Made by a program: the position numbers and the translations under genes | The notes under the pieces: generated by a model | Seen by the model: the letters and a program-made list of their open reading frames with translations, nothing else | Database searches by the model: none | Told to the model about the DNA's origin: nothing | Origin: Escherichia coli | GTDB lineage: Bacteria > Pseudomonadota > Gammaproteobacteria > Enterobacterales > Enterobacteriaceae | NCBI GenBank assembly: GCA_002099625.1 | Contig: GCA_002099625.1_4857.1 | Length of the DNA stretch: 64,000 nucleotides | Reading direction: 5' to 3' (one strand) | In this document: in pieces, positions 10,230 to 58,490 of the stretch | How the letters are laid out: each line of letters begins with the position of its first letter | Numbering within the stretch: the first letter of the stretch is position 1

Positions 10230-11906
10230 TTAGTACAACACTGGTGCAGTTTTCTCACCATTGCTCAGAAGCAGATAGGTGTGCTGCGGCAGCTGCATCA
10301 ATACAATTGCATGTGGCACGTTTTCCTGCACAGCTTCGTAGATAGATACAACAGGGTCTGCGGTATTGCCCAAAGACGCTACCGTAACCACATCATGCTT
10401 ATCAACGGAATGGTACATGCCTGGAATTACAATAGTGAACTGGCTCTGAATCAGATTAACTACTTTGCCGGAATCGCTCAGCTTAATAGTCAGTTTGCGC
10501 AGAGAGTTCGCCACCATCAAGAACAGGTCACGGAACCAGTCTTCATATTCACTGACGCCGTTGTCGCCAGCGGTTGCAGTGAACAGATCTTTTACGAAGA
10601 AATCAATATCGCTGATTTTGCGTTCGAAATCGATGGCTTTGAACTTCGGCACATCTTTACCGCGCTTAGTGCCCAGCGACAGCGCATTGTGTACCAAGAA
10701 CGTGATGTTCGCCAGGTACGCATTAGCAAAGCGAGAAATCTCACTGATAACCACTTCTGCTTCGCTGCTGTTCGCAATCGCATAATCGTGCAGTTCTTTC
10801 GTGTTCTTACGCAGTTCATCGATCGTACGTTTCACCTTAGCCATGATAGTTTCAACATCTTCTACCAGCGCCAGGCTGTCGAGATCGGATTTCAACGCGT
10901 CGTGCTTAGCAACAAATTGCTTCATGCGTTCGCACATATCAGTGTTAACACCGACCAGATACGCGCGATAACTATCCCGTGCACGCACAATCAGGTCAGC
11001 CCCGTCGTAGAAAACAACCTCTTCATTACCGTTAAAGATATCTTGCAACGGTGTAGCCCAATCACGCGTTTCCGCGTAAACAGATTGCTTAATGCGACTG
11101 TTAGCTTCCTTCGCTGGAATCGACATTTTAAGCTCGGGGGTTTTCAGCTCGTGAAGTGCGTAGTCTTCCATCAAATCAATCTCCTGCAGAATGTTGTTAA
11201 TTGGGCCATTGGTAGTGTCCTTCTCGGTTTCTTCTGTTGCGCCGAGTGGGGAAAGCACTGGGTTATTAACTGTAGCATTAGACACCGGCATTGGTTGTAC
11301 AGGCACCTGTGCTGGTTCAGGCTGGGGCTGTTGTGCTGTGGCTGGGACTACTTGCGCCGGTTGTGGGTTCAGGATAGGATCACTAACCAGGTTAAGACCT
11401 GCACCGCCAGCAATCACGGTTAGTGCCGCATCCGTGTTACCAATCTTAACGCCACCGGATGGCGCAGAAGACATGGTCAAGCCATCAGTAACACGCACAC
11501 CGCCAGAACTGTTACCGCCCAGTAACCCGCCTGCGTTGCTACCACCACCTAAACCACCACTGCCACCCAAACCGCCGGACTGCTGAGAACGAATTTCGGC
11601 AAGAATCTTACCGACTTGTTCCCAAGCATTAACCAGTTTGGTGTGACGATCGTCGTTATACGCGTCGCCTGCGTTATGCACCTGCTGATAGGCAGCTGCT
11701 TTATACGCATCGACTGCATATGCGATAACCTGTGCTTCACTACCCCCTTTGGATGCTGCCCATGCCGCAACATACGTCGCAATCTTTAACGCCTGATCTG
11801 GCGGAATGCTACGACTACGCATCACGTTATTCAACTGCGACAGTACCGCGTCCTGATCGAGGTGTTTAACGATGACGTTTTTGATTTGTTCAACAGTAAT
11901 GCTCAT
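10230..11906 (-). CDS. hypothetical two-domain protein with internal Gly-rich and Pro/Gln-rich linkers
   Basis: 558-aa ORF; internal SGGLGGSGGLGGGSNAGGLLGGNSSGG followed by PQPAQVVPATAQQPQPEPAQVPVQPMPV; AGGAG RBS upstream. Confidence 0.55.
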   Translation of the reverse strand: MSITVEQIKNVIVKHLDQDAVLSQLNNVMRSRSIPPDQALKIATYVAAWAASKGGSEAQVIAYAVDAYKAAAYQQVHNAGDAYNDDRHTKLVNAWEQVGKILAEIRSQQSGGLGGSGGLGGGSNAGGLLGGNSSGGVRVTDGLTMSSAPSGGVKIGNTDAALTVIAGGAGLNLVSDPILNPQPAQVVPATAQQPQPEPAQVPVQPMPVSNATVNNPVLSPLGATEETEKDTTNGPINNILQEIDLMEDYALHELKTPELKMSIPAKEANSRIKQSVYAETRDWATPLQDIFNGNEEVVFYDGADLIVRARDSYRAYLVGVNTDMCERMKQFVAKHDALKSDLDSLALVEDVETIMAKVKRTIDELRKNTKELHDYAIANSSEAEVVISEISRFANAYLANITFLVHNALSLGTKRGKDVPKFKAIDFERKISDIDFFVKDLFTATAGDNGVSEYEDWFRDLFLMVANSLRKLTIKLSDSGKVVNLIQSQFTIVIPGMYHSVDKHDVVTVASLGNTADPVVSIYEAVQENVPHAIVLMQLPQHTYLLLSNGEKTAPVLY

Positions 11907-43027: not shown

Positions 43028-44380
43028 TTAGGAAGAAGTCGCCTGACTAAGCTTCGCAGAAGCCACACGCAGGTCATTAGAAAGATAGCGTTCCATCGTA
43101 CGCTGATAATCCACCCCAGCACGTTCACGACGACCACCAGGGGTCAACGTTTTCATGATGAAGCTAAAGACGTTGTCTTTGTCTTTCACGGTTTTCAGTA
43201 ATTCGTCGATAGACGCAATGCCCTGCAGAATACGTTTACGATGTTCGTTCGCTTCTTTCGTGGTGCTACCTTTTAAGGTGTTCAGCTCCTCCACTAAGTT
43301 ACGACGCATCGTCTCAAAACGTTCCTGCGGCGGATCGTAGATGGTGTTGCGTGGGTCGTTCACAATCAGGCCGAACGCGACTGAGATAGTCGTGAAGAAC
43401 AGGCCGACTGGGTTGGACGATGCCACAATCAGCAGCGAAACGTTAAGCATTTCCAGCATCAGATGCACACCGTAGTTCATGTACGACGCGTTCCGGCAGA
43501 GATAGAATTGAGACGTTTCGATTTTGTACAGGGCTGACGCCAGGTACGGGGCTGCACCAAAGCGAGCTGCGAAGTCATCTGCAGCACGTTCCCAGGTACG
43601 GTTAGCGAACCCTTCCGAACCGGTAACAAACGGACGCTCAAGCAGAATGTCTGTCACCAGATGCATGTAGATGTTCTCTTTAGACATCTCTTTGCAGATA
43701 GTTTCCGGCTGATTCACTTTGGTGTTCAGCATACGTTCAACGTCTTTTACGACTTTCAAACGCACAGTCGGGTCTTCGGTTTGCATCATGCGGTTCGCTG
43801 CAGCATCCGCAATCAGGTTCGTTACTACCGTACGCATCAAGGTACGGAAATAGTAATAGACGTGGCCGACTTCATGTAGAATAATCGCCGCGACTTCTAA
43901 ATCCGTTAACTCGATACCGGTCAGTAGTTTCGGGGTCAGCCAAAGTGGGGACGGCACCTTGCTGAGTTCGCCTGAAAGCTTCGCATTTTTATCGTCGAAC
44001 TCGCCGTTCAGCTCGTTCTCTTTTAAGAACTTACTGTAGACATCCAGGTCGGTGTTGCCCTGCACCATCTTGCGTTGCAGGTCGGCGATGATTGGGTTGT
44101 TCGCGTCGAGCTTCGGTGGCTCCACACCCGCAAACACAACGTCCGCCACACCTAAGTCGGACCCGTTACGAGGCAGGACTGTAATACCGTTGTTGTCAAA
44201 GACCCAGGCAGCAATACCAGAACTCTGATAACCCGCTGGCGAGAAGTCGCCCGCATCACGGAACTTACGTACCACTTCCGCCAAAGAGGCGAGTTTCTTT
44301 TTATCTTGGAATCCGATGGACTCCGAGGCCACGGCTTTCGCGTCGGCCAACGAGGTTATGTGCTTTTGCCAGTGTCCCAT
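43028..44380 (-). CDS. HExxH zinc-metallopeptidase-like protein
   Basis: 450-aa ORF containing AAIILHEVGHVYYY (HExxH in a hydrophobic helix context); the third zinc ligand was not identified. Confidence 0.45.
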   Translation of the reverse strand: MGHWQKHITSLADAKAVASESIGFQDKKKLASLAEVVRKFRDAGDFSPAGYQSSGIAAWVFDNNGITVLPRNGSDLGVADVVFAGVEPPKLDANNPIIADLQRKMVQGNTDLDVYSKFLKENELNGEFDDKNAKLSGELSKVPSPLWLTPKLLTGIELTDLEVAAIILHEVGHVYYYFRTLMRTVVTNLIADAAANRMMQTEDPTVRLKVVKDVERMLNTKVNQPETICKEMSKENIYMHLVTDILLERPFVTGSEGFANRTWERAADDFAARFGAAPYLASALYKIETSQFYLCRNASYMNYGVHLMLEMLNVSLLIVASSNPVGLFFTTISVAFGLIVNDPRNTIYDPPQERFETMRRNLVEELNTLKGSTTKEANEHRKRILQGIASIDELLKTVKDKDNVFSFIMKTLTPGGRRERAGVDYQRTMERYLSNDLRVASAKLSQATSS

Positions 44381-44450
44381 TTAGACGTTCCTTTTAGAAA
44401 ATACGTTACCCACAAATCAGTATAGCAGACACCATATTTGAGAGTAGACC

Positions 44451-46235
44451 ATGGAAATCAATACCTATTACGCACCCGAGGATGTCATCGCTAAAGAGTG
44501 CAAGCACGTCGCTTATGCGACGGACGAAGAAAAAGAAAATGACTTTGTCCTCATCAAAGAGGTCATCCATACTAAGGATGGCAGGCTTATCCCGCGCTTG
44601 GTAATGCGTGAGAATTTAAAGCGTCCGGTGTACGTTACCCGTGAAGAATATCGTAACCACCAGGAGAAAAAAGAGTTCGAAGAAAAAGGAAAATGTCAAG
44701 AACTCTGGACTACTGATGCGCAGATGGCGAAGACGTTGCAGATGGGTTTAGGTGCGCGTTTCCCTGACCCGAAAAAGAACCTGCGGCGTGTTTGTACTAG
44801 CCCGTACGTTTATTGGGCCGACTTACCGATTACCAGCTGGATTAAACAGAAATACTTAAAACGCTGGCCGAACAACATCAGTCCTAACCGTCTTTGCGTA
44901 TACGACGTGGAGACCAACGAAAAGGACGGCACGAAGGAACCCTGGATCGTGTCATTTATCTTAGATGATGAAATCCATTTCTTTGGTGCTAAGAACTATA
45001 TGGACCGTATCGGTAAAAACGCGGAAGAAGTCATTCTCAAAAAAGCACAGGAACTGTTAAGCAAAATCGAGTTCGACGAGAAAGACAAAAAGACTGGCGA
45101 GAAGGTGACAAAGACCAAAGACATTATCAGTGGTTATAAAATCTTCACCTATACCTGCGCTACAGCAGGGCAGTGTATCGTCAGGATGTTCGAAGAGATT
45201 CATCCGCGTCTTCCTGATTTGCTGGTCGCATGGAACCACCAGTTCGATATTTCACGCATGTTAGAAACCTTGCAGAAAGAAGGTATCGATCCGCTGGGTG
45301 TCTTTAACCATCCGGATGTGCCGGAGAAATACCGTCGTCTGTGGTTTAAAGAAGACCAGGCGAACAAAAAGACGGAATCCAAGTCACTCACCAAAGCACC
45401 GTCTCAACAGTGGCACGTACTCTACTGTACTGCGTCTTTCTACTGTGTGGATGCCATGGTGCTGTTTCGTTCGTTGCGTGTCCACGAAGGGCAACGTCCT
45501 TCGTACAAGTTATCTGCCATACTGTACACCGAACTCGGTTTACACAAACTCGACATTCCTGGACTGCCGTATGAAGATAACCTGCAATGGCACATAAAAG
45601 CACAACGGGACTACCCTGCCGAATATGCCGTATACAACATGATGGATAACTTGTTAATCGTGTTGCTGGATAAGAAGACGAACGACCTGTCTTCAGCAAT
45701 ATCCATTCTGGCAGGTTTCTCAATGTACGATATCTTCCCGTCGCTACCAAAACGTATCTGCGTGGCCTTTACCTATTATCTGTATGACAAAGGATACGTC
45801 ATCGGTTCCGTAGGGTCTGCAATGCGTAACGATTACGATGAAGAGGTTATCGGTACAGACGGTTGGATTGTTACCCTGACGGCATGTATGAATGCTGAGA
45901 ACGGTCTGAATAACATTCTGGAGGAGATTGACGAATATTACTCTGCGTTCCGTGGTCAAACTGCGGATGCGGACTTAACCCAGGCTTACCCATCGGCCAC
46001 AAACATGATGAACCAGTCTCGTGAGACCACACTCATTGAGCTGCTATCCATCAATGGGGTTAGTGAAGAGATTCGACGTCGCACGGGCGTCAACTTAACT
46101 GCTGGGCGAGTTAATGCCATGGAAATAGCGACAGACTTCTTCTGCTTACCGGACAAAGACACTGTCCTGTCTACGTTCTTACGTAAGCAAGGGGAAGTAG
46201 TGACAGAGCCTATGGAGTACATCTGCGGGTTCTAA
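44451..46235 (+). CDS. DnaQ-like 3'-5' exonuclease domain protein, probable N-terminal fragment of a split family-B DNA polymerase
   Basis: Exo I LCVYDVETNE (D-x-E), Exo II AWNHQFDISRM (N-x2-3-FD), Exo III YAVYNMMDNL (Y-x3-D) in the correct order and spacing; no clear polymerase motifs A/B/C in this 594-aa ORF. Confidence 0.6.
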   Translation: MEINTYYAPEDVIAKECKHVAYATDEEKENDFVLIKEVIHTKDGRLIPRLVMRENLKRPVYVTREEYRNHQEKKEFEEKGKCQELWTTDAQMAKTLQMGLGARFPDPKKNLRRVCTSPYVYWADLPITSWIKQKYLKRWPNNISPNRLCVYDVETNEKDGTKEPWIVSFILDDEIHFFGAKNYMDRIGKNAEEVILKKAQELLSKIEFDEKDKKTGEKVTKTKDIISGYKIFTYTCATAGQCIVRMFEEIHPRLPDLLVAWNHQFDISRMLETLQKEGIDPLGVFNHPDVPEKYRRLWFKEDQANKKTESKSLTKAPSQQWHVLYCTASFYCVDAMVLFRSLRVHEGQRPSYKLSAILYTELGLHKLDIPGLPYEDNLQWHIKAQRDYPAEYAVYNMMDNLLIVLLDKKTNDLSSAISILAGFSMYDIFPSLPKRICVAFTYYLYDKGYVIGSVGSAMRNDYDEEVIGTDGWIVTLTACMNAENGLNNILEEIDEYYSAFRGQTADADLTQAYPSATNMMNQSRETTLIELLSINGVSEEIRRRTGVNLTAGRVNAMEIATDFFCLPDKDTVLSTFLRKQGEVVTEPMEYICGF

Positions 46236-49018: not shown

Positions 49019-49390
49019 TTAATGTCCCGTCAGATCTTTCTCCAGCTCCTTTAACGCACGTTCACCTGCCACCTGTTCGCCGGCTTTGGCGATAATCGCT
49101 TTGCGACGACGGATGTTGTCGAGCATCAGGAGTATCTGCCAGCGAGGGCGGTCGAGGAACTCGTCTATCGACATCCGGTAGTTTTCACCGACCTCTTCAC
49201 GTAAGTAAGTGGCGTACCAGATATCGTAAAGACTACCGTATACCGGGTTTTCAAAATCCGACAACCCTACCTGATGGTCGCCGGTATTAAGAGCCAGTGT
49301 ACGGTCATACGCTTCCAGAAGCTCGTTATGGGCTTCCTGATACGTAATAGGACGTGTGCTACGCTGCTTGAAGAGAGAGGTGGTATCCAT
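49019..49390 (-). CDS. hypothetical protein
   Basis: 123-aa ORF. Confidence 0.5.
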   Translation of the reverse strand: MDTTSLFKQRSTRPITYQEAHNELLEAYDRTLALNTGDHQVGLSDFENPVYGSLYDIWYATYLREEVGENYRMSIDEFLDRPRWQILLMLDNIRRRKAIIAKAGEQVAGERALKELEKDLTGH

Positions 49391-49434
49391 CTTGAGCGTT
49401 GTGATGATTTGCTCGGACGGAACGTCTTCCTGGT

Positions 49435-51405
49435 CTAGCCAATATCGGCGTATTGATCCAGCAAGAATTTCTGAATCTCGGACACCACTCGAGAGAGCAC
49501 GAAAAAAACCCTGTCCGGTGAGATGGTAACAATACCACGATACAGACCGTCTTTCTCGCCGTGTGTTTTACCGCACGCCGGGCAGCGTTTACCCATGTAA
49601 CCGAATACCGCTAAACGTGTACGTTCGTTGTATTCAGCAATTGCGTTTTCAAACTGGCCAACGTAGATACGGTCGGAAGACAGCTCTTCTAGCATCTCAA
49701 CGATTTTCGCTGTGTCGGTTTCAGTTTGTGGGATAACCTGCATTTCACCGTTTACTTCACGTTGCTCGTTAACAGTGATAGATTTCACCATGTGAGCATA
49801 GCGCGTTAAGCGACGGGCTTCCGCAGTTAAACGCATATGGGATTCACGTTCACGCTCGGTAGCAAATTCAGACAGCGCTGCCGTAGTTGACGCGTTAACA
49901 TCTTCAATCCACTTCTCAGTGGAGTCAAAGAAGCTACCCAGGGTAGAACGGCCAAATTCAACACGCACGTCGTGGTATTCAAATACCGAGGATGGGTCAA
50001 CCTGATGCGCCGCGATATATTCGCGCTGTTCAGCAATGGAAATCACTGGACGCTCAGTACCGCGTTGACGTGCCCACAGTTGTTTCTGCAGGTCGCTAAA
50101 CAGACCGGAACCGAAACGGATACAGCGTGCGATATTCAGCTTCACATCTTCCTGCTGAGTACAACCGTCCTCACCGCACATCAGCGTCCATGGAATACCA
50201 GACGGCCATTTCGCTTGCAGCGGACCCAGAATTACCAGCCAGTAGTCAGCCAGATCAATGGTATCCAACAGCACAGTACGCAGATCGTTACCCGCGCAGT
50301 CGATGGTTGCTTCAGTAACAAACTGAAGTGCGAATTCAACCATGTGACGCATGTACACACCAGAAGACGACGACAGCATCAAACCGTAGGTCTGCATACC
50401 GATGGTCGCAGTTTCCAGTGTGAGGCGCATGTCGAAGTCACAAAGGTCACGTTCATGCGGTGCGCGGAAGCCCACGTAGATACCTGTGGCCGGCAACCAA
50501 ACCATATTCGGAATACCCGACTTACGTACACGGCGCAAAGCAGCCAGCGCGCCAGTGTGCATATTGTCACGCGGTGCAATAGCACCAGAAGCCTTACCGT
50601 CCGGCAACATCACACGCTGTTCCCAAGCGGTGTCGCCACGGTCCAGTGCACCCGCGAATGCTGGTACGCCGTCCTGTAGACGTGGCGGGGTCATGTTCAA
50701 AGCACGATAGATGTCGTCGTATACCTGTTGCTGTTCAGGGCTTTCGAATAGCAGCCGGCCGTCTTTCGGTGAACGTTTAATATTACCGAGGAACTTTTGC
50801 AGGGAGTCTGCAATGATGTTAGGGTCTTGTTTCAGACCAATCAACATCTTCGACTGTGTCAGAATACGATCAGCTTCGTCTTCACCCATTTCGGCAGTTT
50901 CAGCTAAATGGGTATTACCGAAGTTAATCTCACGCACCTGTTGTTGTTCCGGAACCTTCGGTGCTGCATCTTCCATTTCTTTTACAGCCGGCTGGGCCGG
51001 TGCAACCGCTTCCGGAGCTTTTGGCTGCGGAGCAGGTTCTACCGCAGGCGCTTTCTCTACTACCGGTTCCGGGGCACGATGTAGGTGCTCCTGCACCTGT
51101 TCAGCAAAAGTCTGAGGTGCCGGTGGTACAGGCGCAGCAGGTTCAGGCAACGCCTCTTCTACAAACGTCGGACGCTCAAGCTTAGGCTCAGGACGATGAT
51201 AGTGTTGGTGATAAACTTCTTCTGCACGGGCAAAAGAAAAATCGGGATTGGCTTGTTTAATAGCCATGATGATTGCATCCGAGGTCGCGTCATCAGGCAC
51301 GGTCGGAAGAATCATCTCTTGTTGGGTAGCAGCCGCCACAGGGGCTGGCTGGTCGGGATTAGGGCGACGGGCATTACCCGGACGCTGATCTTGGATCTCA
51401 GACAT
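49435..51405 (-). CDS. hypothetical protein with Pro/Ala-rich N-terminal linker and C-terminal CxxC motif (656 aa)
   Basis: N-terminal PAAPVPPAPQ...APAVEPAPQPKAPEAVAPAQPAV; C-terminal KRCPACGKTHGE. Confidence 0.55.
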   Translation of the reverse strand: MSEIQDQRPGNARRPNPDQPAPVAAATQQEMILPTVPDDATSDAIIMAIKQANPDFSFARAEEVYHQHYHRPEPKLERPTFVEEALPEPAAPVPPAPQTFAEQVQEHLHRAPEPVVEKAPAVEPAPQPKAPEAVAPAQPAVKEMEDAAPKVPEQQQVREINFGNTHLAETAEMGEDEADRILTQSKMLIGLKQDPNIIADSLQKFLGNIKRSPKDGRLLFESPEQQQVYDDIYRALNMTPPRLQDGVPAFAGALDRGDTAWEQRVMLPDGKASGAIAPRDNMHTGALAALRRVRKSGIPNMVWLPATGIYVGFRAPHERDLCDFDMRLTLETATIGMQTYGLMLSSSSGVYMRHMVEFALQFVTEATIDCAGNDLRTVLLDTIDLADYWLVILGPLQAKWPSGIPWTLMCGEDGCTQQEDVKLNIARCIRFGSGLFSDLQKQLWARQRGTERPVISIAEQREYIAAHQVDPSSVFEYHDVRVEFGRSTLGSFFDSTEKWIEDVNASTTAALSEFATERERESHMRLTAEARRLTRYAHMVKSITVNEQREVNGEMQVIPQTETDTAKIVEMLEELSSDRIYVGQFENAIAEYNERTRLAVFGYMGKRCPACGKTHGEKDGLYRGIVTISPDRVFFVLSRVVSEIQKFLLDQYADIG

Positions 51406-52060
51406 TAGCCGCTTCCTCGGTTTCTACTACAACGTCGTTGTGATCGACGATGGCGTTTTTAGGGAGTTCTTTCGAATTATTAGCCAAAGCTTCGGCCAAC
51501 AGAACTTCGGCTTGTTCCACGGTATGACCGTTATTCAGCGCCTGCTTCACGAACTTCACTTTCGCGTTATACGTGGAGAAGATTTCGATACTGGTGCCCT
51601 GAATATCCATCGCAAGCATGTTTGCCCGCTGGTCAATCAGGGACAGTTCGGTGTGGTCGACGTGGAACTGGTCTTTGATTTCTTTCCACGTTTTGCTGTT
51701 ATCGTTCAGCATGTCAAACACCGGCACCGCCTTAGCGTCTGCCTCAACAATCAGTTTACCGAACAGCTCTTTGCCCTGTTGGCACATGCCAAGGAAAGCC
51801 GCCTGTGCTTCATCCAGCGCTTTCAATGTGAAAGCTTTCAGCTCTTCGTGCGCAATGGCTTCAGTTACTTCACGCTCCCGATCGATTTTGCCTGACAGGA
51901 ATTCGGTACTTTCGATAAACACAGCTTGTTTTTTCAACACAGACTGCATCATCGCCTTGACGAAATCGCGTGCGTCTTTACGTGGGTTATAAGCGGGTTT
52001 CTTTTTGCGACGACTCATCGTAATAATCCTTTTGAAATTAGGGGTTGGGTGTATACACAA
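51398..52060 (-). CDS. hypothetical protein with basic N-terminus
   Basis: 220-aa ORF; MSRRKKKPAYNPRK... Confidence 0.5.
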   Translation of the reverse strand: MCIHPTPNFKRIITMSRRKKKPAYNPRKDARDFVKAMMQSVLKKQAVFIESTEFLSGKIDREREVTEAIAHEELKAFTLKALDEAQAAFLGMCQQGKELFGKLIVEADAKAVPVFDMLNDNSKTWKEIKDQFHVDHTELSLIDQRANMLAMDIQGTSIEIFSTYNAKVKFVKQALNNGHTVEQAEVLLAEALANNSKELPKNAIVDHNDVVVETEEAANV

Positions 52061-52078
52061 TATACACCCAAAACGTGA

Positions 52079-52462
52079 TTAACTTGCATCGTGTGGAACA
52101 GTCACCCAATCGTGCCATTTTTCAGAGTAAAGCCGATAAGCCATCTTTGGATTCTGATCGACGCTACCGGCCGGGTTCTCATTCCACAACACGTACGTAT
52201 ATAACTCGTACGACGAAGTGTTACGGATACTTGACGTGCGGGTGACGTAGTACGTCAACCCGCGTTGGTTAAGGAACAGGCCGCTGTAATGTTCAGTGAC
52301 CATGTAGTAGTGAAACGCCTGGTTGATAGTGGCGTCGGTGCAGAGTTTCTTAGCGACGTCTTCTACGCCGGGATACGCCTTTAGAATGTTTTCGAGAAAA
52401 CTTGCTAAAGTCATTCCGATGTAGGGTGGCAGCGGCTCTGCTGGACGCGGCGGAGTGAGCAT
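52079..52462 (-). CDS. hypothetical protein
   Basis: 127-aa ORF; overlaps the 3' end of the helicase ORF in another frame, so the exact start is uncertain. Confidence 0.35.
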   Translation of the reverse strand: MLTPPRPAEPLPPYIGMTLASFLENILKAYPGVEDVAKKLCTDATINQAFHYYMVTEHYSGLFLNQRGLTYYVTRTSSIRNTSSYELYTYVLWNENPAGSVDQNPKMAYRLYSEKWHDWVTVPHDAS

Positions 52463-54056
52463 GTGATTTCCTTACAACGTAGGGGGATGTCGCGATACGG
52501 AACGACAATACGACATCCTTGAGTGATTTCTGGCGGGCATTCAGGTAATTGCAATGCTTCGGTACGTTATACGCATGGAATAACCACACCGTTGGGTCTA
52601 TTTCACCCCATTCGTTGTGGAGAATCTTACGTGGACGACCGGCCATCTGTTCGTTCAGTTGCTGGTCTTCTACCGGGGTTGAAATGTACATGTGTACCAA
52701 CCCAGGTTTATCGACCGCAGTCCCCGCTTTCCCCGGTGTGGAGATAGAGAAGTCTGCTTGGATAAAGTCGTCATACGAATCGCCTGCATTATATTTCGCC
52801 ACCATCAACGGATGGAATACAGGGTCACGCGATAACTTATCTTTCACATACTCGGTAAAGAACTCACACATCGCTACCGTAGCAAAGAGTATCAAACATT
52901 TTTGGCCAGGTTGATACCGTTTAAGGAACGATTTCTCAACCACATCCCAGATCATGTTCGCGTATTCTAAATGCAAGTTCTCTTTAATCAGCTTCCCTTC
53001 GAAGAGTTTGTGGTTATACGGCGTCATCTTCGACGCCCACCACGCAAACTTCTTATCATCCAGTCGATAGTACAACGCCTTCACGTCAACCACCGGAATG
53101 ATTGGAATACTGATTCGGTACTCCATTGGGAAACGTTCTAAATACCGCTCCGCGATAAAGGCTTTACTGCTACCCGGCTTAAGGGTTGCAGACATCTCTA
53201 TCGATGCCGGAGGGTTCAACATTATACCAGCCATGTAAACGAGGTGAAAATGCTCGTGCACCTCATCCATCGCCACCAGACCCACACCCAGAACATCATA
53301 AAACGTATCCAGGTCCACAGGGTTAGTCGCAGCAGTGTTAATGTACTCCTTCAGGAAACGCTGTAGAGAGACCGTGGGGAGGATTATTACCTTAATACCA
53401 CGACTATCTAACTCTCCCGACTTACCCATCTCCAGCGCGTCGTAAATCGCCTGTACGCCTGTACAAACTAACACCTCGTCACGAAGTATACGAAGTCCTG
53501 TTTCATCATCACAGACGTCAAACAGCCATTTGGGAACGTACGACGGACGGTGAATCAATGCGGTACGGGTTCCCCGTTTAACCATCGACTTCATACACGA
53601 CTTCGTCTTCCCACGACCTGTCTGAATGGCGAAGATTGTCTGTGGTCGGTTTGGATCGGACGCTGCATCCACAACCTCGTTCTGATAGTAGAAACGCGAC
53701 TCCGGATCGCTTTCTACCATCGAGAAGCCGTAGTTATCAAATGTACAGCAGTAAGGTGTTCCTCGCTCAGGATGGTGCTCTGTCAGCTTGTACTGAAAAG
53801 CATATTCAATTGCTGCTCGTTGGAGGATATGTTTAATCTTCTCAGCGAACACTTTATGGAAAATGAACGTCCTTAAAGACGGAATGTGGGCGTAGTACGC
53901 GTCACCGCGTTCCGTAGTTATTCGTCCATGTTGCTTGCCCATCTTTGGGGCGTGCATATTCTCTTCGGCCCACGCGAGTATGGCCCTTTCAGCCTGGCGG
54001 ATAGGGACTTCAACCCGTACCCCCATACTCGTGTAAGTCATTTGAATTTCTACCAT
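52350..54056 (-). CDS. superfamily-2 DExH-box helicase
   Basis: Walker A AIQTGRGKTKS; Walker B/DExH LVAMDEVHEH; motif III MSATLK; motif VI-like QMAGRPRK. Track start at 54113 translates the terminator hairpin; the ATG at 54056 (MVEIQMTYTS...) is the likelier start. Confidence 0.7.
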   Translation of the reverse strand: MVEIQMTYTSMGVRVEVPIRQAERAILAWAEENMHAPKMGKQHGRITTERGDAYYAHIPSLRTFIFHKVFAEKIKHILQRAAIEYAFQYKLTEHHPERGTPYCCTFDNYGFSMVESDPESRFYYQNEVVDAASDPNRPQTIFAIQTGRGKTKSCMKSMVKRGTRTALIHRPSYVPKWLFDVCDDETGLRILRDEVLVCTGVQAIYDALEMGKSGELDSRGIKVIILPTVSLQRFLKEYINTAATNPVDLDTFYDVLGVGLVAMDEVHEHFHLVYMAGIMLNPPASIEMSATLKPGSSKAFIAERYLERFPMEYRISIPIIPVVDVKALYYRLDDKKFAWWASKMTPYNHKLFEGKLIKENLHLEYANMIWDVVEKSFLKRYQPGQKCLILFATVAMCEFFTEYVKDKLSRDPVFHPLMVAKYNAGDSYDDFIQADFSISTPGKAGTAVDKPGLVHMYISTPVEDQQLNEQMAGRPRKILHNEWGEIDPTVWLFHAYNVPKHCNYLNARQKSLKDVVLSFRIATSPYVVRKSHAHSAASSRAAATLHRNDFSKFSRKHSKGVSRRRRRR

Positions 54057-54070
54057 GCTGCCCCTCTTCG

Positions 54071-54099
54071 CACAAAAAAAGAGGGGCGCAAGGCCCCTC
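54071..54099 (-). terminator. intrinsic terminator downstream of 54103..56208, overlapping the helicase RBS
   Basis: Hairpin GAGGGGC-gcaa-GGCCCCTC (54081-54099) followed on the minus strand by TTTTTTTGTG; the downstream CGAAGAGGGG can alternatively pair with the 3' arm. Confidence 0.55.
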
Positions 54100-54102
54100 G
54101 GT

Positions 54103-56208
54103 TTACAACTCAATTACCACAGCGGCTCCTAGGTCATCGTACAACGATGCCGGGATTTTGTACTCGGTATAAAAACCAACGCGATCGATATTCCCCTGCT
54201 GTCCTTCAAACAACAACATCGGAATTGCCGAGCGCAAACTAATGAGCGTGTTGTGATCGACAAACCGTTTCCCGGTGGCATTAGTAGAATCCTCACTGTC
54301 AAATCCTACTGCCGGGAACGGATTGGTTGGCGACTCTACACGAGATATCGCCAACATAATCGCAATATGCGTCATCGGTATACCACTCAGCTTACGCTGG
54401 ATATACTTAAACGTGTCCATCAACGCATAAGTACACTGTTTCTCTGTAGCACCACCCATCTCAACCAACGTCACTGGTTTCACACGACCTTGTTTCTTGT
54501 TCAGCTTCACAGTCGATGCCGTGTTGATGATTTCCACAATGTCTTCGTTCTTATCGGCAGCAATCGAACGGAGCTTGGTTTCTAAGCCGGCTACGAACTC
54601 TGCCATCGATTCAGAACGGTTGGTGTAGACCAGGACCGGGTGTTTCGGGTTCCATCCTTTTAAGGGGATTTCTACTGTCTTCTTCTCGATACGAATGTTC
54701 GCTCGTTGTTTCAAGAAGTAGTGCAGGAACGGTTTAGAGAAGTTCCCACAAACACCCATTCGCACATCGATAGAATCCGCAGCGATTATCTGCCCATCTT
54801 CTAAACGACGTTGGAAAGTTAAGTCGGTGATTTCTGGTAATGCCGTTTCATCAATTGCATCGAGATCTTCATGATACGCAATCTGGCTCAGCTCCGAATA
54901 AATTTTGTCGGTAACAACCAACTCGTATTCTGACCAATTCCCACGCTGTGGTTTTGGCAGCAAGCACAACCCTTTCAGAGAGTTATGTTTGTATTCGGTC
55001 ATATACTCACGCATACGTGGGGTGAGTACCAGGTTGAGCAGATAACGCAAGAAGTCAAGGTGCTTGGTAGAGAGAATTCCCTGTGTACCCTTTTCCGAGA
55101 TGGACGTGGACGCCAGGTGACCTGGTGACGTACCTTCAGAGAGGTTATAAATCAAATCCCCCATACAGGTCGCACAGATGGACTGATTCGCCATCTCTTT
55201 ACAGGTCATGGCACTACGGAAGACCAGCGGTTTGCCAACCAGGTCTGCGTATCCACCTTTCTCAAATCTCAACCACGGACCATTATCGCCTTCTAAACGA
55301 TAACGCATCCCCACCATCGCTTTATAGGCACGCTCATCCAGCTGCGTATCCTTAAACGTGTAGCGGTGTGCGTGAGTTGTACCGCAGTCGTCGTACGTGA
55401 AATACATCAGTACGTTTGCTGCCAACTGCAGTTTACGTGAGGCGTATTCTGCTTCGGCAATCTTGTCAGTGTTGTACAAGTGGGAACGTGAAGTTGCACC
55501 GGATTCTTTCAAACGCGAAATAACCGAGTGCATTCCGGTAAAGAAGCCTTCCCACACCTGATTGGTGTATACACGTGAGTCAATTTCTGACGTTTTACCA
55601 CGCACGAAGGCTTGCAGTACCTGGTTCATCTTCACAGTACCGTCCAGTACCGACATCACGACCGGGTTATACCGTAGCGCAGGGTCTTTGAAGATTTTCT
55701 CGATAAGCTTGTACGCTTCTTCAACCATATCCTGACCATCTTCATCGTAGCCAGTAGGGTATTGCACTTCCCACTGACGGATGAGTTCGAAGTTCGGGTG
55801 GTCGTAGATCTCCATCATCGTATCAAAGTCGATTGTCGTACAATAGGACAGCAAGTTCTTCACTGTCATGTTGAACGCATCGGCGTAGACATGTTGACTC
55901 AGGATATAACGCGTTTCAGCAAGGTCGACACCTGCTTTACGGGCCAGTACCGCTGCTTCCGACATAAAGTCCAGATGCAGGTCATCTGTTGCTACCTGAC
56001 CTGGACGATACGCCATGGTCGATGGAGTGGGCACCTGCGGATACAGACGCGACACACCCCAATACGGCCAGCTGAGTTTGATGTGGCGACTAGACATTTC
56101 CAACGACTTACCATCGTCGAATGTCACGTAATAACGCCCGCGTAGTTTCCACACCTGATCAGAGTTAAGCATACGCAAATCACGTACGTGTACAGAACGA
56201 CCCGCCAT
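54103..56208 (-). CDS. hypothetical large protein (701 aa); possible RNA polymerase beta-prime-like C-terminal fragment
   Basis: TAATG overlap with the RNAP beta fragment gene; EKGTQGILSTKH weakly resembles the beta-prime trigger-loop motif GTQLTMRTFH. The RNAP assignment is tentative and the NADFDGD motif is absent. Confidence 0.5.
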   Translation of the reverse strand: MAGRSVHVRDLRMLNSDQVWKLRGRYYVTFDDGKSLEMSSRHIKLSWPYWGVSRLYPQVPTPSTMAYRPGQVATDDLHLDFMSEAAVLARKAGVDLAETRYILSQHVYADAFNMTVKNLLSYCTTIDFDTMMEIYDHPNFELIRQWEVQYPTGYDEDGQDMVEEAYKLIEKIFKDPALRYNPVVMSVLDGTVKMNQVLQAFVRGKTSEIDSRVYTNQVWEGFFTGMHSVISRLKESGATSRSHLYNTDKIAEAEYASRKLQLAANVLMYFTYDDCGTTHAHRYTFKDTQLDERAYKAMVGMRYRLEGDNGPWLRFEKGGYADLVGKPLVFRSAMTCKEMANQSICATCMGDLIYNLSEGTSPGHLASTSISEKGTQGILSTKHLDFLRYLLNLVLTPRMREYMTEYKHNSLKGLCLLPKPQRGNWSEYELVVTDKIYSELSQIAYHEDLDAIDETALPEITDLTFQRRLEDGQIIAADSIDVRMGVCGNFSKPFLHYFLKQRANIRIEKKTVEIPLKGWNPKHPVLVYTNRSESMAEFVAGLETKLRSIAADKNEDIVEIINTASTVKLNKKQGRVKPVTLVEMGGATEKQCTYALMDTFKYIQRKLSGIPMTHIAIMLAISRVESPTNPFPAVGFDSEDSTNATGKRFVDHNTLISLRSAIPMLLFEGQQGNIDRVGFYTEYKIPASLYDDLGAAVVIEL

Positions 56209-58445
56209 TATTTATCCTCCCGAATTGGACGCACTAATTCAAAACCTTCACAGCGATGGATGTTACGTATCATCCTGTCAATCTGCGAATCACCCATTGG
56301 TAGTTTCTTACGATCGACCAGCACCCCTGGATTGGTTGGTGTTGGCGAGTTATACAGCCCCGTTACGATCGCACGGTGTACCGCTGGGTTATTAGCGCGG
56401 TCATGAGTTTCGGGGAAGTTGCCCGGACCAAAGCCGTCGGTAAGACGCTGCTCGGAAGGACCACCCCACTTCAACCCTTTCAGGTTAATCGGATATGAAC
56501 CACGTCCTTGGTTGGATGCATCAATACAACCCAAATAGTTCGTGTACATCGACGAGATACTGGAGAACTCACGACCGGTTTTATCCAGGCGCAGAGTCTC
56601 TACCATGCCGACGTAGAACTGGTTCTTCGTCCACTCTTTCTCACCCTGATAGTTAGTAATCAGTAGCTTAGACTTGCGTGGTGCATACTCGCCTAGAGCA
56701 CGGCAGATTTCTACCTGGGTGGCATTCAATTCGTGGGGAAGCCAGATACGAATCGTGAAGTCGTAAATCTCTTTAAAGAGTTCCAGACGTGACCCAGTAT
56801 CCGGGTGACTGGCATTGAGATAGAATGTCCAGCGTGGGTTATAGCGATCGATATAGTCCATCAGGATTTCCCAGGCTTCATCAACCTGGTTGGCGGCAAG
56901 TAATGGTTTCAACCGCATCTTCAACTGCTCGGATGCAGCAGACCAATACATGTGGAACAGCGCAGCATAAGTCGAACGACGAATTACGGCGTTCATGGAA
57001 CGAATGACATGCACACGTTCTCCGAACTCGTTAATCGGCATTTCTTCATCAGGCCGCACTGCGCCCACGATACCTTTTGTACCTGAACGGTCGGTGATTT
57101 TCGATGAGACGGTAACTGGGATTGGATAACGTACCACGATGCGTATCGTGTAACTACCAATTGGGTCCCAGAGACCACGCTGAACCGGCTGCGCCAGTTT
57201 GTTCAACACGTTCTTATCAGCAGAACGGTTATACTCGCCTTTGCGCATGGCTTCATCGTATTCACGACCAATCTCTTCACGGAAGTCGTTATAGACTTCA
57301 TACGTCTCAGAACAGAACGCCTTGTCGAGAATCTCAAACGCTTTCGGTGACCAGACAATATTCTTGTCCTTGGACATCGCAAAATAGAACCGCACGATAT
57401 CATTGTAAAAACGTTTCAAAGCGTTCGCGTAGTGATCTAACTCGCGTTTGTTCTCTTCGGTACATGCGATATTGTTAACACCACGATCGCATTTGGTTTC
57501 GTCCCGCCATACCTGAATATCAACGACACGAGAACCAGTACGTTCCATCTTTTCAAAGTCGCCAGCCTGACGCGCTTTGTAATGCTCAGGGTCGGCATCA
57601 ACATACTCACAACGGTCGAAGTGCGGAGAGATATGTTGTGTTTCGCCCACGTGTGAGTCAATAGCCGCCCACAGCTTATCGAAACGACGCGCGGCTATAA
57701 CCAACCCATCATCGCGAATTGCCTGTCCTTTATTGGGCAGGTACTGTGGTCGACGAACGCCATCAATACCCGTTGTCCCATACGTATCAAGCAGGTACTC
57801 GTCGTCGCGCAAGGTAAAGTCGATTGCACGCAAACCATAAGCGTGCATCGCCTTCGCTGCAGTTTCGGAGATGGTGTACGAGTCCTCGATAATGTCCGGG
57901 TGCGACATTGTCACAGTGTGCAGGTTGACCCCATCGACAAACTCACCGTCTTTCTGTGCCGGCAGCACGGTAAGCATTTCATCTTTTTCCAGGTGCTGAG
58001 TCTGCCCGCGCAGCAACGCCTGAAGTTTCCCAGTAGCCTCTTTCTTAGACGAGAAAATGTTATCGTGGTTGGTGTAATACTTGATATCGATTACATCAAT
58101 CATCACTTTGCGCTGGTTGGTTAAATCTGCGCGCGTGAAGAAGATAACATGTTGGAGCGGATCGTGATCCCCTTCACGACCATAGCGTGCAAAAACAGCT
58201 GCACGAGTAACACCTTCTTTGGTTGTGTAACTGCACACGGTACCACTATCTTCCACGATATCGTTAAAACAATAATCGTGGTAGTTCACATCAGCGCCGG
58301 TAAAATGGATAGTCGGGTCTGGATTGTCCAGTGGTACCGCCGACTTCATATGTCCACCCACCATTGAGGCACGTGCCCCAGATACGCCAGTGATATTCAC
58401 CTCACGGTCAGCAACGCTTGACATGAGTTCGACTGGTGTTTTCAT
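56208..58445 (-). CDS. multisubunit RNA polymerase beta subunit, C-terminal fragment (745 aa)
   Basis: DRSGTKGIVGAVRPDEEMPINEFGERVHVI aligns with the conserved bacterial RpoB block [30 protein letters not shown]; downstream LKGLKWGGPSEQR resembles LGGKAQFGGQR. ATG with AAGGAG RBS; promoter 15-mer 30 nt upstream. Confidence 0.65.
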   Translation of the reverse strand: MKTPVELMSSVADREVNITGVSGARASMVGGHMKSAVPLDNPDPTIHFTGADVNYHDYCFNDIVEDSGTVCSYTTKEGVTRAAVFARYGREGDHDPLQHVIFFTRADLTNQRKVMIDVIDIKYYTNHDNIFSSKKEATGKLQALLRGQTQHLEKDEMLTVLPAQKDGEFVDGVNLHTVTMSHPDIIEDSYTISETAAKAMHAYGLRAIDFTLRDDEYLLDTYGTTGIDGVRRPQYLPNKGQAIRDDGLVIAARRFDKLWAAIDSHVGETQHISPHFDRCEYVDADPEHYKARQAGDFEKMERTGSRVVDIQVWRDETKCDRGVNNIACTEENKRELDHYANALKRFYNDIVRFYFAMSKDKNIVWSPKAFEILDKAFCSETYEVYNDFREEIGREYDEAMRKGEYNRSADKNVLNKLAQPVQRGLWDPIGSYTIRIVVRYPIPVTVSSKITDRSGTKGIVGAVRPDEEMPINEFGERVHVIRSMNAVIRRSTYAALFHMYWSAASEQLKMRLKPLLAANQVDEAWEILMDYIDRYNPRWTFYLNASHPDTGSRLELFKEIYDFTIRIWLPHELNATQVEICRALGEYAPRKSKLLITNYQGEKEWTKNQFYVGMVETLRLDKTGREFSSISSMYTNYLGCIDASNQGRGSYPINLKGLKWGGPSEQRLTDGFGPGNFPETHDRANNPAVHRAIVTGLYNSPTPTNPGVLVDRKKLPMGDSQIDRMIRNIHRCEGFELVRPIREDK

Positions 58446-58475: not shown

Positions 58476-58490
58476 AGATAATATCTATCT
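58476..58490 (-). promoter_or_regulatory. conserved 15-mer AGATAATATCTATCT (copy 3 of 5), in a 66-bp divergent intergenic region
   Basis: Exact 15-mer; 30 nt from the minus-strand ATG at 58445 and 21 nt from the plus-strand ATG at 58512, so it could serve either gene. Confidence 0.55.

Follow-up and report, generated by a model that had tools for sequence, protein, structure and literature searches.

A terminator arm that may mask the helicase ribosome-binding site downstream of the nvRNAP β′ gene in SPN3US-like jumbo phages

The 46-nt gap between the gene for the β′ subunit of the non-virion RNA polymerase (nvRNAP) and the DNA helicase gene of an SPN3US-like phage holds a canonical intrinsic (Rho-independent) terminator, by the criterion of a stem-loop followed by a U-run, and the 3′ arm of this terminator is predicted to pair alternatively with the Shine-Dalgarno (SD) sequence of the helicase. 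The explanation that we prefer, and to which we give about an even chance, is that the junction is bistable and that the element limits translation of the helicase on mRNA that has read through the terminator. The first-pass annotation had likened the layout to attenuation or translational control. The first is contradicted by the position of the competing strand, which lies 3′ of the U-tract; the second is favoured by the comparative evidence, since the three-way complementarity is invariant, the SD is atypical and the ribosome-binding site (RBS) is an outlier in structure.

The window (the whole 64 kb stretch of DNA analysed) belongs to a nucleus-forming jumbo phage, a relative of the giant Salmonella phage SPN3US. 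The product of the upstream gene, gp35, has been named the nvRNAP β′ subunit and carries conserved regions a17-a20 in its C terminus (PMC5105663). The helicase is a conserved core gene whose product has to be made, and its N terminus is conserved from Met1 among relatives. The features of the region are collected in the table.

Table. Features of the β′-helicase junction and its surroundings (window positions)
Feature	Position	Strand	Basis or remark
Early (virion-RNAP type) promoter motif AGATAGATATTATC, upstream of the β-like gene (56208-58445)	58477..58490	-	motif scan
nvRNAP β′ subunit gene, SPN3US_0035 / SEGD1_038 homologue (gp35)	54103..56208	-	ORF list; PHROG 3015 'RNA polymerase beta subunit', E = 8e-241
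Stop codon (TAA) of the β′ gene	54105-54103	-	
Terminator 5′ arm GAGGGGC (segment A)	54099-54093	-	begins 3 nt past the stop codon; identical to the SD segment
Terminator loop CUUGC	54092-54088	-	varies among relatives
Shared strand: terminator 3′ arm GCCCCUC (segment B), anti-SD mimic	54087-54081	-	partner is the 5′ arm or the helicase SD
Terminator U7 tract	54080-54074	-	first three U pair with the GAA upstream of the SD; the remainder is the alternative-hairpin loop
Spacer GUGCGAA	54073-54067	-	read from the sequence
Helicase SD GAGGGG (54066-54061), inside GAAGAGGGGC; segment GAGGGGC is 54066-54060	54069-54060	-	3′ strand of the core alternative helix
Predicted SD- and AUG-sequestering alternative hairpin, whole	54094-54052 (5′ strand 54094-54078, loop 54077-54070, 3′ strand 54069-54052)	-	MFE and centroid
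Start codon (AUG) of the helicase	54056-54054	-	
SF2-type DNA helicase gene, SPN3US_0036 (gp36), phiKZ gp75 homologue	52350..54056	-	PHROG match: PHROG 16 'DNA helicase', E = 3.8e-58

Read on the minus strand, the junction runs UAA-ACC-GAGGGGC-CUUGC-GCCCCUC-U7-GUGCGAA-GAGGGGC-AGC-AUG. The consensus scan found a terminator-like hairpin of seven pairs, six of them G-C, with a 5-nt loop and TTTTTTT directly after it; the hairpin energy for this phage is -13.2 kcal/mol. The terminator is unidirectional, since the plus strand has no T-tract. That it abuts the helicase start is plain from the minus-strand coordinates, as had been noted before, but the distance of 15 nt first given needs correcting: the AUG follows the U-tract by 17 nt and the stem by 24 nt. 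Formation of 3′ ends by the phage polymerase in this U-tract may be expected by analogy with the phiKZ polymerases, which stop at hairpin-plus-U terminators with partial read-through (PMC10914365). The transcript that reaches the terminator likely starts at the early promoter motif upstream of the β-like gene. Motifs of this type, whose nature has been described (PMC7598289), have seven matches in the window against 0.05 expected, and the one at the β-gene junction is conserved in five genera. No other copy was found between the β-gene promoter and the helicase.

All energies given here for the junction are in-silico predictions. Folding of the junction, the check suggested in the first-pass annotation, gave the alternative fold as the minimum free energy (MFE) structure of a 76-nt minus-strand RNA (-28.9 kcal/mol, z = -3.3), and none of 200 shuffled sequences folded equally well. 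The competing stem does include the helicase SD, as had been proposed, and is larger than the CCCCUC/GAGGGG pairing first seen: its core is ten contiguous pairs between GCCCCUCUUU and GAAGAGGGGC, and past a one-base bulge it takes in part of the terminator loop, which brings the AUG into the helix too. In this phage the extension is made by the UGC of the loop, which pairs with a GCA that runs from just upstream of the AUG into it. The alternative hairpin is predicted at -24.4 kcal/mol against -14.6 kcal/mol for the terminator, and the predicted barrier on the direct path from terminator to alternative is 6.6 kcal/mol here and 6.6-9.5 kcal/mol over the folded relatives.

The balance between the two folds is predicted to differ among relatives. 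The alternative hairpin can form in all ten clade representatives, and in none of them is it less stable than the terminator (-14.4 to -20.4 versus -12.9 to -13.7 kcal/mol); six of the ten have the SD paired in their MFE fold. The probability of the alternative stem, in contexts of 110 and 320 nt, is 0.67-1.0 in Seoulvirus, 0.97-1.0 in Erskinevirus and 0.8 in Derbicus. In Huxley it ranges from 0.25 to 0.8 and changes with the folding context. In the Wellington-like phages additional GAGAGA:UCUUUU pairs lengthen the terminator, which is the full predicted winner (alternative probability 0.0). Masking of the SD would therefore be non-uniform across the family. Burial of the AUG is predicted in Seoulvirus, Erskinevirus, part of Machinavirus and a metagenomic clade. 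This loop/AUG extension is lineage-specific and does only weakly better than permuted loops, with a fraction of 0.03-0.15 in four clades and 0.3-1.0 elsewhere.

The predicted retention of the terminator fold in the Wellington-like phages and the limited spread of the loop-AUG extension are what would be expected if the junction were an ordinary terminator followed by an ordinary SD, the match between a G-run SD and a C-rich arm being a by-product without selected function. We regard this as unlikely, though it is the strongest of the competing explanations. It also draws on the purine-rich, SD-like arms (GGGAG, GAGAGG, AAGGUGG) that are common in the terminators of this phage, and on the lack of covariation that would indicate selection for the alternative helix. 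Relatives were collected from phage GenBank records (blastn and tblastn), IMG/VR and JGI metagenomes, and gave 20 distinct junctions from at least six clades, with flanking DNA identity down to ~65% and helicase identity down to 54% at the amino acid level. Compensatory or triple changes were sought in all of them and none was seen, the paired segments being invariant: both arms and the GAGGGG core of the SD are the same in 20/20 junctions, and the U-tract is changed at one position in one clade. The variable parts are the terminator loop (10 variants), the spacer from stop codon to hairpin and that from SD to AUG; the SD-AUG spacing was scored as variable in the conservation analysis, whilst our feature list records it as conserved in all relatives. 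Some 5′ arms were placed out of register in the MAFFT alignment of the junctions.

Other observations are left unexplained by a chance pairing of ordinary parts. Of five orthologous terminators compared over five genera, four have stems that change or are replaced, and only the stem at the helicase junction is frozen. A frozen stem would be expected where the same strand has to match two partners and one of these has to match 16S rRNA as well. Such invariance points to constraint without proving that the alternative helix is what is constrained. The SD itself is also unusual. The usual SD of this phage is UAAGGAG, and GAGGGG serves as SD for the helicase alone among 46 annotated starts, never drifting to the usual AAGGAG; of the ten copies of GAGGGG in the 64 kb, only that at the helicase junction precedes a start codon. 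By a simple-count estimate, a perfect 7-nt match within ~25 nt is expected at ~10^-3 per junction, and pairing of this kind between arm and SD is absent from the other co-directional terminator-to-gene junctions. A candidate second example, a GAGGG-type SD junction next to the terminator at 28431-28410, was rejected when folding showed no arm-SD pairing.

The helicase RBS is also among the most structured. The predicted cost of opening positions -15 to +3 at the helicase start is 13.6, 13.2 and 8.8 kcal/mol in three genera, where medians are 5.2-5.6 kcal/mol and the helicase ranks 2/46, 1/45 and 4/44, respectively. The few starts ranked above it have no canonical SD, are mostly GTG or TTG and may be mis-annotated. 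Opening the helicase RBS is thus predicted to cost ~8 kcal/mol more than that of the median gene of the region.

The folds could also be read as transcriptional attenuation, with the alternative stem acting as an antiterminator, possibly one governed by a ribosome standing on the stop codon close by. Most clades have the hairpin starting 3-4 nt past the stop codon, the Wellington-like phages 6 nt past it, and terminators so near a stop codon are repressed in E. coli by the trailing ribosome (PMC4824070). The order of transcription makes attenuation unfeasible, however, because the competing SD strand (54069-54060) is transcribed after the U-tract and is absent when the decision to terminate is made. 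The SD segment is the sole competitor found, and none transcribed before completion of the terminator was seen. Nor was a sensing device found upstream of the terminator: there are only the 3-6 nt between stop codon and hairpin, no conserved small ORF, and no Rfam family (cmscan of 53700-54500, both strands) at E <= 1. A small ORF that starts in the terminator loop was considered and set aside, since its frame, length and presence are not conserved in other clades. It has a UUG start here, 13 codons and a UAG end overlapping helicase codons 2-3, and in Erskinevirus it has an AUG start and 9 codons; a loop AUG or UUG occurs in some clades only, so that there is no conserved leader ORF. Moreover, SPN3US and Asesino form a nucleus in which transcription is physically separate from translation (PMC13282480), and such a phage can neither tune termination with a ribosome nor use transcription-translation coupling in general. 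Attenuation is in our judgement very improbable.

Returning to masking of the RBS, the proposed mechanism treats the junction as three segments: A (GAGGGGC), B (GCCCCUC and the U-tract) and A′, the (GAA)GAGGGGC of the helicase SD. From its canonical anatomy, the A:B hairpin would form once the phage RNA polymerase has transcribed A, the loop, B and U7, and a fraction of the transcripts from the early promoter upstream of the nvRNAP genes would end there. On read-through RNA A′ would emerge 7 nt past the U-tract, dock on it through a UUU:GAA toehold and displace the identical segment A by branch migration. Folding suggests that this would yield the more stable B:A′ hairpin, extending in this phage through the former terminator loop and burying the AUG. 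Since the mRNA is made in the vesicle or phage nucleus but translated in the cytoplasm, it would already be refolded when it met ribosomes, and helicase initiation would be strongly damped. Compared with the output of the polymerase subunits, that of the helicase may in this way be lowered twice, through partial termination and through masking of the RBS, and the element would shield translation of the helicase from a strong early operon that reads through. Such masking, if real, would allow a nucleus-forming jumbo phage to set very different outputs for neighbouring genes of one early operon by means of one element of 46 nt with an RNA strand in a double role. The junction would then also offer a mutable target for the study of post-export mRNA control in Chimalliviridae, on which a literature search found no data, and, for synthetic biology, a compact natural part combining terminator and read-through silencer. 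If masking is not real, the junction is a well-conserved intra-operon terminator.

The closest precedent is in phage T4, and masking at the helicase junction is best read, by analogy, as a variant of the same principle. The e, soc, 49 and I-TevI mRNAs of T4 are masked in long early transcripts, ~100-fold in the case of e, by structures that are conserved among related phages (PMC3014915). As in T4, the downstream SD and/or AUG at the helicase junction is predicted to be buried in a stable local helix on read-in transcripts. The helicase junction differs in that one strand doubles as masking strand and as 3′ arm plus U-tract of a functional-looking terminator, making the masking and terminator folds mutually exclusive, and in that no internal promoter was found, whereas in T4 a late promoter in the 5′ strand of the helix unmasks the late transcripts. 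A fully T4-like temporal switch would have the early read-through RNA masked and the helicase translated from a later transcript that starts in or just after the 3′ arm and thus has no masking strand. Such a switch would follow the logic of T4 e and I-TevI (PMC3014915) and would resolve how an essential gene is expressed behind a masked RBS, but it is quite improbable. The 3′ arm and the SD are only 9-14 nt apart, conservation among genera does not extend upstream of the hairpin, and the gap has neither the early motif AGATAKATATTAYC nor a phiKZ-type late TATG (PMC7598289), a result that weighs only weakly against a middle or late promoter. No unmasked helicase transcript or promoter was found. 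A search of the literature turned up no 3′-end, structure-probing or expression data for the SPN3US group, and nothing on SPN3US promoters, terminators or transcriptomes that bears on the β′-helicase junction.

For RBS masking on read-through mRNA there are other possible routes to relief: cleavage in the U-rich stretch, a protein that holds A:B or binds GAGGGGC, or S1-assisted unfolding from the U-rich loop. A ribosome ending translation of the upstream gene was rejected as a means of relief by translational coupling. The footprint of a terminating ribosome reaches ~10 nt beyond the stop codon and so covers the 5′ arm and not the 3′ arm; such a ribosome could therefore favour masking rather than relieve it. 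A subfamily-wide two-state switch, in which a trans-acting input moves the RNA between a terminator hairpin with an open SD and the SD-sequestering hairpin, is possible but doubtful. The input might be an RNA-binding protein from phage or host, cutting of the U-rich stretch by an endonuclease, or the ribosomes that terminate 3 nt before the 5′ arm, and it would set the timing or the amount of helicase made once the mRNA had been exported. Were such a switch to exist, it would be a new class of phage riboregulator, with one strand serving as terminator arm and anti-SD.

A bound protein might also account for the invariance by itself, if the repeated GAGGGGC or the hairpin were an operator and conservation reflected protein recognition rather than competition between RNAs. 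One example would be autogenous translational repression of the T4 gp43 or gp32 kind, with the helicase or a polymerase subunit as the repressor, and operators that overlap an RBS have precedent in T4 (PMC3014915). It is the sequence that is conserved and not merely the structure, with a loop that is free to vary, and this suits an operator. The spacing of the two GAGGGGC copies, on the other hand, varies from 28 to 33 nt among relatives, no other copy of the motif lies at a gene start in the window, and there is no candidate binding protein. We consider an operator of this kind improbable, and it would be compatible with an RNA switch, through which the protein could act.

Each half of the proposed arrangement, termination and masking, has parallels in other systems. 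The rpsU-T1-dnaG-rpoD operon of E. coli has an internal attenuating terminator, and its downstream replication gene is lowered relative to the upstream genes. In Bacillus subtilis trpE an SD-sequestering hairpin forms on TRAP-bound read-through transcripts, and the IS10 transposase is subject to fold-back inhibition on read-in transcripts. These two resemble the helicase junction in having a second, translational lock only on transcripts that escape or bypass transcriptional control; unlike it, trpE needs bound TRAP and IS10 needs a promoter inside the element. To our knowledge neither uses the terminator's own arm as anti-SD, and we know of no alternative pairing with the downstream RBS described for rpsU-T1-dnaG-rpoD or for the 5′-UTR terminators of phiKZ. 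The phiKZ terminators, which have two modes of read-through, resemble the junction in that an intrinsic terminator inside a transcription unit lowers the downstream gene (PMC10914365).

The element is not found in phiKZ, PhiPA3 or Eowyn, whose helicases are ~25-27% identical; PhiPA3 and Eowyn have unrelated hairpins. In phiKZ, gp74-gp75 has the same gene order, nvRNAP β′ followed by helicase, but the two genes overlap by 17 nt and have no hairpin or U-tract between them. Among the sequences compared, only the SPN3US-Erskinevirus-Machinavirus-Derbicusvirus-Wellingtonvirus group has the terminator/SD design.

In the window, which is 99.3-99.9% identical to Enterobacteria phage SEGD1 (Salmonella phage SPN3US is a close relative; phages of this type are jumbo phages of ~240 kb in the genus Seoulvirus), all genes relevant to the junction lie on the minus strand. 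The gene preceding the helicase is homologous to that for SPN3US gp35, described by Thomas et al. as the non-virion RNA polymerase beta' subunit, with conserved regions a17-a20 at its C terminus (PMC5105663). The 46-nt gap between the two genes reads UAA, ACC, GAGGGGC, CUUGC, GCCCCUC, UUUUUUU, GUGCGAA, GAGGGGC, AGC and AUG. An intrinsic terminator of textbook anatomy (seven pairs, six of them G-C; predicted hairpin energy -13.2 kcal/mol) is made up of the first GAGGGGC, the loop, GCCCCUC and seven Us, whilst the second GAGGGGC is the helicase Shine-Dalgarno (SD) region, with six bases between GAGG and AUG. Because the two purine segments are identical, the pyrimidine arm is able to pair with either. 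The first-pass annotation had proposed a competing stem that includes the helicase SD, and folding of the 76-nt junction RNA, the check it called for, predicts this alternative hairpin and not the terminator, with a larger pairing than had been claimed. The core is ten contiguous pairs of GCCCCUCUUU with GAAGAGGGGC; past a single bulged base the helix continues as UGC and CC, from what was the terminator loop, paired with GCA and GG around the AUG. The fold has a predicted energy of -28.9 kcal/mol (z = -3.3); all 200 shuffled sequences were less stable. The terminator does lie just 5' of the helicase start, though at a distance of 17 nt (U-tract) or 24 nt (stem) rather than the 15 nt first put forward.

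A 13-codon ORF (54091-54050, minus strand) has a UUG start in the terminator loop, with GAGGGG of the 5' arm as a possible SD, and a UAG stop overlapping the second and third helicase codons. Its Erskinevirus counterpart has an AUG start and nine codons; the ORF is not conserved in other clades.

Coordinates of the polymerase and helicase genes and of the copies of the 14-nt motif
Feature	Position	Strand	Basis
RNA-polymerase beta-like gene	56208-58445	minus	Pfam RNA_pol_Rpb2_6; PHROG 3295
Second polymerase gene (SPN3US_0035 in SPN3US)	54103-56208	minus	PHROG 3015, E = 8e-241
Helicase gene (SPN3US_0036 in SPN3US)	52350-54056	minus	PHROG 16, E = 3.8e-58
AGATAKATATTAYC copies	63649-63636, 62233-62220, 58490-58477, 31165-31152, 22660-22647, 15591-15578, 14786-14773	minus	motif count

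The arrangement exceeds chance on four lines. GAGGGG is scarce, with 10 copies on both strands of the window, only the helicase copy preceding a start codon. The usual SD in the region is UAAGGAG or a close variant, and among the 46 annotated SEGD1 starts GAGGGG is used only at the helicase. The free energy needed to unpair positions -15 to +3, computed with the preceding 60 nt included, is 13.6 kcal/mol for the SEGD1 helicase (rank 2 of 46), 13.2 kcal/mol in Erwinia phage Asesino (1 of 45) and 8.8 kcal/mol in Huxley (4 of 44), against medians over genes of 5.2-5.6 kcal/mol in these three phages; the few starts that outrank the helicase have no canonical SD and are mostly GTG or TTG. Lastly, pairing of a terminator arm with the SD of the next gene is absent at the other co-directional terminator-to-gene junctions of the window.

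Homologous junctions gathered from GenBank phages, IMG/VR and JGI metagenomes comprise 20 distinct sequences, from Seoulvirus (three sublineages), Erskinevirus, Machinavirus, Derbicusvirus, Wellingtonvirus and one uncultured clade, with identities down to ~65% in flanking DNA and 54% in the helicase. The arms GAGGGGC and GCCCCTC and the SD core GAGGGG are invariant in all 20, and the T-tract is altered at a single position, in the Derbicus clade. The terminator loop is variable (ten sequences, 4-5 nt between the arms), as are the spacers from stop codon to hairpin and from SD to AUG. At four other orthologous junctions compared over five genera as a control, every terminator alters or wholly swaps its stem, often by compensatory changes and frequently keeping a cUUCGg-type loop. 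For a strand with two partners, one of which also pairs with 16S rRNA, change needs three or four simultaneous substitutions, and the frozen triple matches what a bistable element would predict. With all paired segments invariant there is no covariation among the 20 junctions, so the alternative helix is not demonstrable statistically.

In Erwinia phage Derbicus the annotated GTG start of the helicase, gp38, falls within the conserved SD (GUGAGGGG; 10745-10757 of the examined stretch). The true start is likely to be the conserved AUG 12 nt downstream, which has the SD spacing of all relatives.

Predicted energies across the family are -12.9 to -13.7 kcal/mol for the terminator hairpin and -14.4 to -20.4 kcal/mol for the alternative. 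The estimated direct-path barrier from the first to the second is 6.6-9.5 kcal/mol, and the first U-tract residues are predicted to pair with A/G just 5' of the SD, giving a toehold for branch migration; with this barrier and toehold, the terminator fold should escape kinetic trapping once the SD is made. In longer contexts the alternative stem has a probability of 0.67-1.0 in SEGD1, 0.97-1.0 in Asesino, ~0.8 in Derbicus and, varying with context, 0.25-0.8 in Huxley. It is 0.0 in Wellington, where pairing of GAGAGA with the U-tract lengthens the terminator. The helix extends into the loop and AUG in Seoulvirus, Erskinevirus, ChrisDB-type Machinavirus and the uncultured clade, and not in the others; where it does so, native loops are better than 85-97% of permuted loops. 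Since both outcome and extension differ by clade, the conserved property would be the competition rather than a uniform outcome. The main rival, that the complementarity is incidental, accounts for the Wellington case and for the missing covariation, but leaves unexplained why this stem is uniquely invariant, why a unique non-canonical SD has been frozen and why the ribosome binding site is a structural outlier; we consider it unlikely, whilst giving it real weight.

The window has seven copies of the 14-nt motif AGATAKATATTAYC, against 0.05 expected. AT-rich motifs of this kind upstream of early operons are virion RNA polymerase promoters in this phage family (PMC7598289), and AGATAKATATTAYC, which orthologous junctions share in five genera, is most likely the corresponding early promoter of this group. 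The copy at 58490-58477, located immediately 5' of the beta-like gene in the divergent region, is among those kept in five genera. The motif was not found between this copy and the helicase, and neither it nor the phiKZ late TATG element was found in the 46-nt gap; thus the simplest transcription unit runs from this promoter through beta, beta', the terminator, the helicase and the following genes to the next terminator at 49010-48995. The polymerases of phiKZ stop at hairpin-plus-U sites, with partial read-through at many (PMC10914365). The AGATAKATATTAYC copy at 62233 lies inside the 544-aa ORF SEGD1_032, ~270 nt from its end.

Of the two kinds of control first suggested for the junction, translational control is plausible, given the invariant three-way match and the folding, whereas attenuation fails on the order of the parts. 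The competitor of the 5' arm is the SD, which, being 3' of the U-tract, has still to be transcribed when termination is decided; attenuation is thus essentially excluded. No conserved leader ORF was found among the 20 junctions, loop start codons occurring only in some clades and differing in frame and length. Terminators a few bases after a stop codon are modulated by the ribosome in E. coli (PMC4824070), but SPN3US and Asesino form a phage nucleus that keeps transcription apart from translation (PMC13282480), which makes such modulation unlikely at this junction.

Under translational control, the 3' arm and U-tract of the terminator would sequester the helicase SD, and in the window phage also the AUG, on read-through transcripts, and uncoupling from transcription would give the RNA time to adopt the more stable fold before ribosomes arrive. 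The 5' arm begins 3 nt beyond the beta' stop codon and would be covered by a ribosome completing that gene, whereas the 3' arm would stay free; such a ribosome could only promote masking. Opening the helicase ribosome binding site costs ~8 kcal/mol more than at the median gene of the region, which suggests, as a rough estimate, one to two orders of magnitude less translation; T4 gene e shows a 100-fold reduction with a comparable hairpin (PMC3014915). The element may therefore act as a double brake, holding the helicase to a low output compared with the polymerase subunits and also shielding it from read-through of a strong early operon. Relief of the mask might come from cleavage in the U-rich stretch, from unfolding that S1 assists and that begins at the U-rich loop, or from a protein, either one stabilising the terminator fold or one binding GAGGGGC.

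Among described systems the nearest in principle is that of T4, where e, soc, 49 and I-TevI have their translation initiation regions masked on long early transcripts (PMC3014915). Unlike in T4, the masking strand at the junction is the terminator's own arm, the same 60-nt segment folding either into the terminator or into the mask, and there is no sign of an internal promoter. A T4-type switch with a putative internal promoter is improbable, and a sequence-specific protein operator at the junction only a little less so; either would act through or beside the same RNA competition. Further parallels are the SD-sequestering hairpin of B. subtilis trpE and IS10 fold-back inhibition, and Rfam holds no family matching the junction region. 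On comparative and thermodynamic grounds the element appears to be a variation on a known masking principle, a neat, deeply conserved small regulatory design that would hardly surprise a specialist.

The beta'-helicase gene order is kept across Chimalliviridae, whilst junction design depends on lineage: in phiKZ the beta' and helicase genes (gp74/gp75; 1084-1100 of the examined stretch) overlap by 17 nt with no hairpin or terminator, and PhiPA3 and Eowyn have other hairpins. From these comparisons, the gene order predates the element.

Most window terminators (1914, 9526, 15641, 20729, 40804/40830, 46252/46276) carry pyrimidines in the 5' arm and purines in the 3' arm (CCUCUC...GAGAGG), often with UUCG-type loops and often bidirectional between convergent genes, and resemble the phiKZ terminator motif (PMC10914365). 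The four purine-first terminators (54099, 49010, 29728, 28431) are all intra-operon, with a same-strand gene close behind. A second conserved motif, GTGTATATTGTGTA, occurs at ~52020-52075, after helicase/gp040, and in the SEGD1 046/047 divergent region (~44380-44451); in SEGD1 and Asesino it lies within a hairpin that lacks a U-tract, and Huxley has the motif and no hairpin. A related motif, CTATAyTGAT, is also present, and the two may represent a second promoter class.

The window helicase is an intein-free allele. The close relatives SPLA5c, SPLA3, JN03, EC001 and Lh1B carry a 1038-bp in-frame insertion in this gene, which in SPLA5c (helicase CDS at 101-2845 of the examined stretch, mis-annotated as 'terminase large subunit') is a 346-aa Hint and LAGLIDADG homing-endonuclease intein (Pfam LAGLIDADG_3, E = 3.8e-10). 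The insertion site corresponds to ~53606-53607, between helicase codons 150 and 151, at GRGK|T of the Walker A motif. Identity is 93% on the N-extein side and 99% on the C-extein side, which suggests a co-conversion tract. Further downstream, 49019-51405 holds two ORFs (49435-51405 and 49019-49390), like Asesino gp56 and gp57, where SEGD1 annotates one 2388-nt CDS (SEGD1_042); the two either differ by a frameshift or show a discrepancy that stems from annotation or sequencing.
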